From: Escherichia coli | GTDB taxonomy: Bacteria > Pseudomonadota > Gammaproteobacteria > Enterobacterales > Enterobacteriaceae | Direction: 5' to 3' (one strand) | DNA: 64,000 bases | Assembly (NCBI RefSeq): GCF_003790525.1 | Contig: NZ_CP033635.1 | In this document: positions 44,880 to 48,844 of the stretch, one piece after another | Numbering within the stretch: position 1 is the first letter of the stretch | Layout: each line of letters starts with the position of its first letter | Notes under the pieces: generated by a model | Databases searched by the model: none | Told to the model about the DNA's origin: nothing | Seen by the model: the letters and a program-made list of their open reading frames with translations, nothing else | Made by a program: the position numbers and the translations under genes

Positions 44880-46163
44880 ATGGCTCTTAACACACCACAA
44901 ATTACGCCGACAAAGAAGATAACAGTGAGGGCTATCGGCGAGGAACTGCCGCGTGGTGATTACCAACGTTGCCCGCAATGTGACATGCTGTTTAGCCTGC
45001 CCGAGATAAATTCTCATCAAAGTGCCTATTGTCCGCGCTGTCAGGCAAAAATTCGTGACGGGCGCGACTGGTCGCTAACGCGCCTGGCGGCAATGGCGTT
45101 CGCTATGCTGTTGTTGATGCCGTTTGCCTGGGGCGAACCGCTGTTGCATATCTGGCTGTTAGGCATCCGTATTGACGCCAACGTTATGCAAGGCATCTGG
45201 CAAATGACCAAACAGGGCGATGCGATAACGGGGTCGATGGTCTTTTTTTGCGTTATTGGTGCCCCCCTTATTCTGGTGACCTCCATAGCTTATTTATGGT
45301 TTGGTAACCGACTGGGAATGAATTTACGTCCGGTACTGCTGATGCTTGAGCGACTGAAAGAGTGGGTAATGCTCGATATCTACCTGGTCGGCATTGGCGT
45401 TGCTTCTATAAAGGTACAGGATTATGCCCATATCCAGGCGGGTGTCGGCTTGTTCTCTTTTGTGGCGTTGGTGATTTTAACGACGGTGACGTTGTCACAT
45501 CTTAATGTCGAAGAACTGTGGGAGCGATTTTATCCGCAGTGCCCCGCTACGCGAAGGGACGAGAAACTCCGTGTCTGTCTTGGGTGTCATTTTACCGGCT
45601 ATCCTGATCAGCGTGGTCGCTGCCCGCGTTGCCATATCCCGCTACGCCTGCGTCGCCGTCATAGTCTGCAAAAATGCTGGGCGGCGCTGTTAGCGTCAAT
45701 CGTTTTGTTGTTACCTGCCAACCTGTTGCCTATCTCTATCATTTATCTGAATGGTGGTCGGCAGGAAGATACGATTCTTTCCGGAATTATGTCGCTGGCA
45801 AGTAGCAACATTGCGGTTGCGGGAATCGTGTTTATCGCCAGTATTCTGGTACCGTTTACTAAAGTGATCGTCATGTTCACTTTACTGTTGAGTATTCATT
45901 TTAAATGCCAGCAAGGTTTACGCACACGCATTCTGTTACTGCGGATGGTGACCTGGATTGGTCGCTGGTCGATGCTCGACCTGTTTGTCATATCTTTAAC
46001 CATGTCGCTGATTAATCGCGATCAGATCCTCGCTTTTACTATGGGACCGGCTGCGTTTTATTTCGGCGCAGCGGTAATTTTGACTATTCTTGCTGTGGAA
46101 TGGCTGGACAGCCGCTTACTTTGGGATGCACATGAGTCAGGAAACGCCCGCTTCGACGACTGA
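44880..46163 (+). CDS. letA: PqiA-family inner membrane protein LetA (YebS), 427 aa
   Basis: Full-length ORF; two PqiA repeats each with a Cys4 zinc-ribbon (CPQC...CPRC; CLGC...CPRC). Confidence 0.93.
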
Positions 46164-48765
46164 AGCGCAGATTAAAAATAAACGCCGTATCTCACCTTTC
46201 TGGCTGCTGCCGTTCATCGCGCTAATGATTGCTGGTTGGCTGATTTGGGACAGTTATCAGGACCGGGGTAATACTGTCACCATCGACTTTATGTCGGCGG
46301 ATGGTATTGTTCCAGGCCGTACGCCTGTTCGTTATCAGGGCGTTGAAGTCGGAACTGTGCAGGATATCAGCCTCAGCGACGATCTTCGTAAGATTGAAGT
46401 CAAGGTCAGCATCAAGTCCGATATGAAAGATGCGCTGCGCGAAGAGACACAGTTCTGGTTGGTGACGCCAAAGGCCTCGTTGGCAGGTGTCTCCGGGCTG
46501 GACGCCCTCGTCGGTGGTAATTATATCGGCATGATGCCGGGCAAAGGTAAAGAGCAGGATCACTTTGTCGCACTCGACACCCAACCGAAATATCGGCTGG
46601 ACAATGGCGATCTGATGATCCACCTGCAAGCCCCCGATCTCGGTTCACTGAGCAGTGGTTCATTGGTCTATTTCCGCAAGATCCCGGTGGGTAAAGTCTA
46701 CGACTATGCCATCAATCCCAATAAGCAAGGCGTGGTGATTGATGTCCTGATCGAGCGGCGTTTTACCGATCTGGTGAAAAAAGGTAGCCGTTTCTGGAAC
46801 GTTTCCGGCGTTGATGCCAACGTCAGTATCAGTGGCGCGAAGGTGAAACTGGAAAGTCTGGCGGCACTGGTTAACGGTGCGATTGCCTTCGATTCACCTG
46901 AAGAGTCGAAACCTGCCGAGGCGGAAGATACCTTTGGTCTGTATGAAGATCTCGCCCACAGCCAGCGTGGCGTAATAATAAAACTGGAACTGCCGAGTGG
47001 GGCCGGATTAACCGCCGACTCGACGCCGTTAATGTATCAGGGGCTGGAAGTCGGACAGCTGACTAAACTGGATTTAAATCCTGGTGGTAAAGTCACTGGG
47101 GAAATGACCGTTGATCCCAGCGTCGTCACCCTGCTTCGTGAAAATACCCGCATCGAATTACGCAACCCGAAATTATCCCTTAGCGATGCCAATCTCAGCG
47201 CCCTGCTGACCGGAAAAACCTTTGAGTTGGTGCCCGGCGATGGCGAGCCACGCAAAGAGTTCGTTGTTGTGCCAGGCGAAAAAGCACTGCTGCATGAACC
47301 TGATGTTCTGACACTGACCCTGACAGCACCGGAAAGTTACGGTATTGATGCTGGTCAGCCGCTCATTCTTCACGGCGTGCAGGTAGGCCAGGTTATTGAT
47401 CGTAAACTCACCAGCAAAGGCGTCACCTTTACCGTCGCCATCGAGCCTCAGCATCGAGAACTGGTAAAAGGCGATAGCAAATTTGTCGTCAACAGCCGTG
47501 TCGACGTGAAGGTGGGGCTGGATGGCGTTGAGTTTCTCGGAGCCAGCGCCTCAGAATGGATTAACGGCGGGATACGTATTCTGCCGGGCGATAAAGGCGA
47601 GATGAAAGCCAGCTATCCACTGTATGCCAATCTGGAAAAAGCGCTGGAGAACAGCCTTAGCGATTTACCCACCACAACCCTAAGTTTGAGTGCAGAGACG
47701 CTGCCGGATGTGCAGGCAGGATCGGTAGTGCTGTACCGTAAATTTGAAGTTGGTGAAGTTATTACCGTGCGTCCGCGAGCTAACGCGTTTGATATCGATC
47801 TGCATATTAAGCCGGAGTATCGCAACCTTCTGACCAGCAATAGCGTGTTCTGGGCAGAAGGCGGGGCGAAAGTTCAGCTGAATGGTAGTGGCCTGACCGT
47901 ACAGGCATCCCCGCTCTCCAGAGCATTAAAGGGAGCCATTAGCTTCGATAACCTCAGCGGTGCCAGCGCCAGTCAGCGTAAAGGCGACAAACGTATTCTG
48001 TATGCTTCCGAAACAGCGGCCCGTGCGGTTGGCGGGCAGATTACGCTTCACGCTTTCGATGCCGGAAAACTGGCGGTCGGGATGCCAATTCGCTATCTCG
48101 GTATTGATATCGGGCAAATCCAGACGCTGTATCTGATTACCGCGCGCAATGAAGTGCAGGCAAAAGCGGTGCTCTATCCGGAGTATGTCCAGACCTTCGC
48201 CCGCGGCGGTACGCGCTTCTCGGTGGTCACACCGCAAATTTCAGCCGCGGGCGTTGAGCATCTTGATACCATCCTCCAGCCGTATATCAACGTCGAACCA
48301 GGTCGGGGTAATCCTCGCCGCGACTTTGAGTTGCAAGAAGCCACCATTACTGATTCGCGTTACCTGGATGGCTTAAGCATTATTGTTGAAGCGCCGGAAG
48401 CCGGTTCGTTAGGTATTGGTACGCCTGTGCTGTTCCGTGGTCTGGAAGTCGGTACGGTTACCGGAATGACGCTGGGGACATTGTCTGATCGCGTGATGAT
48501 TGCGATGCGCATCAGTAAACGCTATCAACACCTGGTGCGCAACAATTCCGTCTTCTGGTTGGCATCAGGTTACAGTCTGGACTTTGGTCTGACGGGCGGA
48601 GTAGTGAAAACCGGCACCTTTAACCAATTTATCCGTGGCGGCATCGCCTTCGCCACGCCTCCGGGTACGCCACTGGCACCGAAAGCCCAGGAAGGCAAGC
48701 ACTTCCTGTTGCAGGAAAGTGAACCGAAAGAGTGGCGTGAATGGGGAACTGCGCTTCCCAAATAA
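46132..48765 (+). CDS. letB: multi-MCE-domain envelope-spanning protein LetB (YebT), 877 aa
   Basis: ORF 46090..48765; ATG at 46132 (MSQETPAST...) gives 877 aa; N-terminal TM then tandem MCE domains; overlaps the letA 3' end by 32 nt. Confidence 0.93.
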
Positions 48766-48773
48766 TGCCCACT

Positions 48774-48800
48774 GCTCCGGCGTGTCTGCGCCGGAGCGTT
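48774..48800 (+). terminator. possible hairpin terminator downstream of letB
   Basis: GCTCCGGCG-TGTCT-GCGCCGGAGC followed by GTTTATG; T-tract is weak. Confidence 0.4.
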
Positions 48801-48844
48801 TATGCTAAACTGCGCGCCTGTTTTTTTGCCAGTGGTATATGCTC

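Follow-up and report, generated by a model that had tools for sequence, protein, structure and literature searches.

Whether the translation of one gene depends on that of its upstream neighbour is a question raised by letA (yebS) and letB (yebT) of Escherichia coli, where the letB start codon lies inside the end of letA. A sequence-only reading of the locus took this arrangement as a sign of translational coupling between a PqiA-like membrane protein and its multi-MCE partner. We examined the junction in the window, which is the whole stretch of DNA analysed (64,000 nucleotides) and to which all coordinates refer unless stated otherwise, and in related genomes. The features at the junction are the following.

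44880..46163, plus strand: letA (yebS) coding sequence, 427 aa, PqiA-family inner-membrane protein (ORF list, Pfam and RefSeq annotation of the near-identical SMS-3-5 locus).
46132..48765, plus strand: coding sequence of letB (yebT), whose 877-aa product has an N-terminal transmembrane helix and seven MCE domains (ORF, Pfam, RefSeq, conservation of the ATG and an INRI-seq peak in 5/5 replicates).
46132..46163, plus strand: dual-coding overlap of 32 nt, comprising letA codons 418-427 and the stop, and letB codons 1-10 and two bases of codon 11.
46161..46163, plus strand: letA stop codon TGA, read from the sequence.

The sequence of positions 46130-46163 is acATGAGTCAGGAAACGCCCGCTTCGACGACTGA. 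The letB frame is +1 relative to that of letA and is open from 46084, and ATG 46132 straddles the letA His418 and Glu419 codons (cAT Gag). As had been pointed out from the sequence, the letB start thus falls within the last 11 letA codons in another frame, more exactly the last ten sense codons and the stop. The same 32-nt overlap with ATG 46132 is found among the ORFs of the window and in the RefSeq annotation of yebS/yebT in E. coli SMS-3-5 (4 differences from the window in 64,000 bases). It is also explicitly stated in the 2026 LetA structure paper, and the overlap is therefore already known, both annotated and published. Of 5426 complete E. coli genomes, all but two (5424) carry the junction region.

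The proposed identities of the two proteins hold. LetA includes two stretches of the PqiA domain (PF04403, E 1e-81) and LetB seven of the MlaD/MCE domain (PF02470, E 3.6e-84), with an N-terminal transmembrane segment visible in the LetB translation. The pair has the composition of a LetAB operon: an upstream gene with two PqiA domains and a downstream gene whose product has an N-terminal transmembrane helix ahead of six to eight MCE domains. The expected chromosomal context, prc-proQ-msrC / yebS-yebT-rsmF, is present in the SMS-3-5 RefSeq annotation. The start of rsmF is itself ambiguous, since RefSeq uses GTG 48845 and an in-frame ATG is located two codons upstream at 48839. A pattern scan found a candidate signal after letB.

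48773..48798, plus strand: GC-rich hairpin resembling a terminator, 8 nt past the letB stop, with 11 pairs (8 of them G-C) and a weak T tract; identified by pattern scan as a consensus match only.

This hairpin is probably the end of the letAB transcription unit, as judged from its sequence. For an internal letB promoter, the pattern scan returned three sites where 3.5 are expected by chance and so gives no support. Only two co-directional overlaps occur in the 64-kb window, that of letA-letB being the longer; the other is the 13-nt overlap of yoaL and yoaE (SMS-3-5 record 1358508-1358520). The convergent pair nimR/yeaL overlaps by 44 nt (SMS-3-5 record 1385512-1385555).

Long annotated gene overlaps are frequently start-codon mispredictions. 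The open letB frame offers several starts besides ATG 46132: TTG 46090, which is the first start codon of the frame, ATG 46126, which the sequence-only reading did not mention, and downstream the next ATG at 46225.

46126..46128, plus strand: alternative in-frame ATG giving a 38-nt overlap; it needs GAT at Asp416 and a codon 417 beginning with G.

To compare junctions, we assembled a set of 80, composed of the window and 79 orthologous letA loci from species-representative genomes (Escherichia through Pasteurellaceae; LetA identity 41-100%), and anchored them on the invariant LetA motif DSRLxW. Counted from the first base of the LetA Trp415 codon, an ATG follows at exactly 10 nt (Trp+10) in 75/80 junctions, and it is therefore not a chance ATG. 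The letA codons that contain it are biased in the same sense. Codon 418 is CAT in 59 cases and TAT in 16; CAC and TAC do not occur, whereas elsewhere in the same genes the shares are 57% CAT and 67% TAT; the first base of codon 419 is always G while its residue varies (E, A, D or G). ATG 46126 behaves differently. It is polymorphic (M-H-M-S...) and depends on the Asp416 codon, GAT in 57 junctions vs GAC in 14, a switch which makes or breaks an ATG of this type; it has been lost in one E. coli genome (L002) through a change in codon 417 (GAT ACA) and is missing in many genera. It also directly adjoins GGG, leaving zero Shine-Dalgarno spacing.

Start-site mapping by INRI-seq (PMC9825163) agrees with these comparisons. 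In this method, a purified system is supplied with retapamulin and with templates that extend only from -30 to +153 around each start. Peaks are searched for 12-18 nt inside the annotated coding sequence, and this favours 46132 over 46126, which would place the observed peak outside that interval. ATG 46126 was rejected on these three grounds. We also considered the wider proposal that the overlap is an annotation artefact, with LetB truly starting at ATG 46126, at TTG 46090 or further downstream and with a different overlap or none at all. It draws on the general tendency of long overlaps to be mispredicted, on the in-frame position of ATG 46126 and on the place of TTG 46090 at the head of the open frame. 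However, neither of these codons is conserved, in Yersinia, Serratia and others a stop closes the letB frame just upstream of the ATG, ATG 46225 sits within the transmembrane helix, and the INRI-seq peak is where 46132 predicts it. We regard such an artefact as extremely improbable. The conservation of the ATG, the bias of codons 418 and 419 and the lack of conservation of 46126 together indicate that ATG 46132, the start adopted in the sequence-only reading, is the real letB start and is maintained by selection. Among the exceptions, Tatumella morbirosei (L055) has ATA in place of the Trp+10 ATG (TGGGATGCATATACA) and only the Trp+4 ATG is left; either the start site has shifted, or ATA itself serves as start, or the sequence is in error.

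The signals around this start are modest, and they are written in letA codons.

46122..46127, plus strand: weak Shine-Dalgarno-like element UGGGAU, formed by the letA Trp415-Asp416 codons of the DSRLxW(D/K) motif and ending 4 nt before the letB ATG.

The duplex of UGGGAU with the anti-Shine-Dalgarno sequence has an energy of -4.0 kcal/mol, which ranks 53rd among 70 start sites of the window (median -6.05). The geometry of the start is nonetheless conserved as UGG-R-A-N5-AUG: a 30-species alignment shows no variation in the TGG, in the A at alignment position 65 or in the ATG.

Sequence variation falls sharply across the overlap. Variability at letA third positions decreases from 1.05 bits upstream to 0.40 bits within the overlap, and at letB third positions it reaches up to 1.30 bits downstream of it. 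Within the overlap every letA third position is a letB second position, and the low variability is thus what dual coding predicts. One segment stands out.

46138..46145, plus strand: CAGGAAAC, with near-zero entropy in the 56 junctions that have a 32-nt overlap; both frames are constrained and any change alters at least one protein.

The near-invariance of CAGGAAAC is probably due to this dual-coding constraint, but it may also have a role at the mRNA level. The segment, located just past the letB ATG, carries an AGGA Shine-Dalgarno-like core. As for the proteins, LetA 419-427 shows no cryo-EM density and LetB 1-13 was omitted as low-confidence (PMC13017536). The overlap encodes LetA 419-427 and falls within LetB 1-13, and both of the encoded segments are disordered cytoplasmic tails.

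The letA stop, unlike the fixed start geometry, changes position: in the orthologues it ranges from 14-59 nt downstream of the letB ATG to gaps of 2-16 nt. The 32-nt overlap is by far the most frequent, with 56 junctions from three or four families. Shorter overlaps measure 14 nt (2 junctions), 17 nt (2), 23 nt (1), 26 nt (5) and 29 nt (2), those of Haemophilus and Rodentibacter rarus being 17 and 23 nt, and longer ones 35 nt (1), 41 nt (3), 44 nt (1), 50 nt (1) and 59 nt (1). Three more distant syntenic loci differ among themselves: one keeps the Trp+10 geometry with an 11-nt overlap (L085), another has an 8-nt overlap and a different start (L083) and in the third the genes are separated by a 25-nt gap (L084). 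The phase of the overlaps is constant, all lengths found (8, 11, 14, 17, 23, 26, 29, 32, 35, 41, 44, 50 and 59 nt) being congruent to 2 mod 3. In Citrobacter sp. R56 (L009), the letA stop has been replaced and four extra codons added (tail ...FADGSAD) to give the 44-nt overlap, an example of stop-codon drift inside letB.

The overlap has also been lost. In Pectobacterium (L049, 5195-5240, and L061) a 16-nt unit, CTGATGTGGRATAACA, is tandemly duplicated at the junction. The first copy encodes LetA L-M-W-D-N-T and the second, in a shifted frame, D-V-E-stop, after which the letB ATG follows 2 nt on, with the native letB upstream sequence retained. Brenneria (L048), a relative of Pectobacterium, has a single copy and a 50-nt overlap. 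The Pectobacterium duplication is the natural equivalent of laboratory refactoring. In Dickeya (L056 and L059), LetA ends right at WDND and a spacer of 15-16 nt, with zero overlap, leads to the letB ATG. These spacers carry TAGGGTAATA or TAGGATAACA before the ATG, apparently a copy of GGGATAAC in which the Shine-Dalgarno sequence is better. The losses in Pectobacterium and Dickeya, together with the variants at the three distant loci and in the paralogous pqiAB operon, indicate that the overlap, old and stable in one lineage, is not obligatory. Two further sequences met in this survey are atypical. In Yersinia aldovae ATCC 35236 (L068), the length of the tblastn match, 1244 nt, is not divisible by three and no LetA motif was found in frame, which suggests a letA frameshift or an error in an older draft assembly. 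A 747-aa protein (P0231) that matches LetA over residues 22-427 has about 320 extra residues and may be a PqiA-family fusion protein.

Can letB then be translated without letA? The most direct evidence comes from INRI-seq, since the letB template lacks the letA start. Peaks at the yebT start (1917510) were recorded in 5/5 replicates, at 29.8, 49.1, 35.1, 61.8 and 69.1 CPM, compared with 6.3-7.9 CPM at the yebS start (1916258) (Table S2, PMC9825163), and this with a letB template about 9-fold rarer than that of letA, 58.7 vs 541 CPM (Table S4, PMC9825163). The yebT peaks on a short and rarer template therefore show that, in vitro, ribosomes initiate at letB with no translation of letA, and that initiation there exceeds that at the letA start. 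They establish that the site can initiate alone, on a short template in a purified system; coupling in the native mRNA is a separate matter. The raw letB:letA peak ratio of about 6.7 is near the 6:1 stoichiometry of the complex, a match that may be a coincidence, and per template the ratio is about 60-fold.

These results bear on the mechanism suggested by the sequence-only reading, which can be stated as termination-reinitiation: ribosomes would end letA translation at UGA 46161, move back about 29 nt and restart at AUG 46132, making LetB dependent on LetA. Several observations are in its favour. Subunits of one complex are a class enriched among overlapping pairs (PMC10666635), the letB Shine-Dalgarno element is weak, bidirectional scanning after termination has been proposed for phage coat-lysis pairs (PMC12548453) and the 32-nt distance is constant in 56 junctions. 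Against it, termination-reinitiation is efficient only at stop-start spacings of about -8 to +10 nt (PMC10666635), and the letA/letB spacing of -32 nt falls outside this range. Long overlaps are about 4-fold rarer and typically uncoupled (PMC10666635), and in synthetic constructs lengthening the overlap weakened coupling, with none left at -25 nt (reviewed in PMC12548453). Moreover, the orthologues, despite their fixed start geometry, place stop and start at distances between -59 and +16 nt, and the letB start region initiates in vitro on its own. The LetAB complex includes one LetA for six LetB; if synthesis is proportional, one-for-one reinitiation would therefore supply at most a minority of LetB. 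Finally, published LetA functional assays use a refactored, non-overlapping letAB plasmid as their wild-type reference.

On balance, reinitiation at letB seems unlikely. That the two genes are co-expressed from one operon, as the sequence-only reading held, is well established; the step from overlap to coupling is unsupported, and the evidence leans against coupling as a requirement for letB, although partial coupling may exist in vivo. Initiation from a template lacking the letA start comes close, in vitro only, to a LetB translation indifferent to a block of letA, the outcome which that reading itself had named as counting against it. A different relation between the frames, a LetA-LetB fusion produced by +1 frameshifting of the prfB type, was rejected, since the letA end (GAC GAC UGA A) includes no CUU-U-type slippery site by inspection.

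Coupling could also operate through RNA structure, the letB start being masked in the mRNA and opened by letA ribosomes as in the MS2 coat-lysis and rpmI-rplT pairs. This unfolding model has been deemed plausible where the terminating upstream ribosome leaves the downstream AUG uncovered, as it would with 32 nt (PMC12548453). The single-sequence fold of the junction is no better than that of shuffled sequences (z = 0.36), and an RNAalifold consensus of 30 species includes no structure at the letB start, with four pairs elsewhere and -1.4 kcal/mol. The opening energy of the letB start site is 10.3 kcal/mol vs 14.7 +/- 3.9 kcal/mol inside the letAB coding sequence and is like that of ordinary starts (9.8 +/- 3.3 kcal/mol for 70 annotated starts of the window); it is also under the intragenic mean in 15/15 orthologues tested. 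An inhibitory structure over the downstream start, the hallmark of RNA-unfolding pairs, was thus not found, and the isolated letB start region initiates in vitro. We consider coupling by unfolding very unlikely. One local hairpin was predicted.

46149..46167, plus strand: local 7-bp hairpin CGCUUCG-ACGAC-UGAAGCG, which holds the letA stop (single-sequence fold).

This hairpin is missing from the 30-species consensus fold and its sequence is kept only in Enterobacteriaceae; a function is doubtful.

We propose as the probable explanation that letA-letB is a long phase-1 overlap retained in the letAB operon, and that ribosomes mostly initiate on letB independently. The region where they do so would consist of the weak UGGGAU, a 4-nt spacing and the AUG followed by an A-rich stretch, embedded in codons of the C-terminal DSRLxW(D/K) motif of LetA, and reading of LetA would run ten codons further, through the letB start. 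The overlap would be tolerated because the two segments it encodes are disordered cytoplasmic tails. It would persist because an overlap in the +1 frame cannot reach the 4-nt or 1-nt forms by point mutation, as has been described for phase-1 overlaps in general (-8, -11, ... -32), which mutation cannot shorten to -4 or -1 (PMC10666635). We infer that independent initiation dominates in vivo and allows an excess of LetB over LetA that matches the 1:6 complex. In the MS2 coat-lysis pair, however, coupling operates at a 50-nt overlap (PMC12548453), and this counts against independent initiation as the main route. As to expression of the two genes in the cell, in vivo Ribo-RET detected neither the letA nor the letB start (value 0 for both), the supplements of PMC5318159, PMC10746267, PMC8144880 and PMC13245402 include no entries for yebS/yebT expression, and in the proteome of PMC6544118 YebT was found and YebS was undetected.

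The fixed length of 32 nt in 56 junctions and the near-invariance of CAGGAAAC could also reflect selection on the arrangement itself rather than passive dual coding. The letB start embedded in the letA tail would then be a selected device, which either tunes the 1:6 ratio, for example by transient occlusion by letA ribosomes, or promotes co-translational assembly. In the latter variant, letB would initiate on mRNA tethered to the membrane by nascent LetA, with the LetB transmembrane helices assembling around LetA. The persistence of the Trp+10 geometry from Enterobacterales to Pasteurellales, the unusually low sequence variation in the overlap, the asymmetry of the complex and the raw INRI-seq ratio, if not coincidental, are consistent with this idea. 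Yet low variation is what dual coding alone predicts. The arrangement has been lost in Pectobacteriaceae, the start has moved in one distant locus (L083) and the genes have separated in another (L084); the paralogous pqiAB manages with a 4-nt gap and a strong GAGGAG element, and the refactored construct serves as wild type in functional assays. A selected device appears slightly less likely still than reinitiation, and we retain independent initiation from a passively kept overlap as the preferred reading.

The consequences are mainly practical, and the case opens no new biological question. A change made in the last ten letA codons, be it a mutation, a tag or a deletion, is at the same time a change to the start region of letB and to the N-terminus of its product; for this reason a refactored construct was needed in the deep mutational scan of LetA. 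The letB start would likewise be lost in single-gene letA knockouts whose deletion takes in bases before 46143; in the Keio design, reportedly only the last 21 nt of the deleted gene are kept. As a long phase-1 overlap whose downstream start is bound to a conserved codon motif of the upstream gene, the pair is also a clean and well-sampled example, and it warns against reading translational coupling from an overlap alone.

Among known systems, letA-letB most resembles the long phase-1 co-directional overlaps described by Huber et al. 2023 (PMC10666635). Its genes lie on the same strand in one operon, and the 32-nt overlap is within the 10-60 nt of this class and congruent to 2 mod 3; the 8-nt overlap of L083 is the minimum predicted for this phase. 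The letB start is anchored to a conserved LetA codon motif and the arrangement persists in two orders, which the generic scenario of stop-codon loss does not call for. Coupled pairs that overlap by 4 nt or 1 nt, such as pqiB-pqiC (ATGA, 4 nt), also encode partners of one complex and have the downstream start region inside the upstream coding sequence, but the letA stop is 29 nt past the letB start and letB initiates alone in vitro. The E. coli paralogue pqiA-pqiB has the same gene order, a W-D motif near the C-terminus of PqiA and, at the start of PqiB, a transmembrane helix preceded by a short cytoplasmic stretch; it differs in its 4-nt gap, in the strong GAGGAG located within the last pqiA codons and in having no long overlap. 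The phage MS2 coat-lysis pair (-50 nt) likewise has its downstream start well upstream of the upstream stop. In that pair the start of lysis is masked and requires translation of coat, whereas the letB start is unstructured and independent in vitro.
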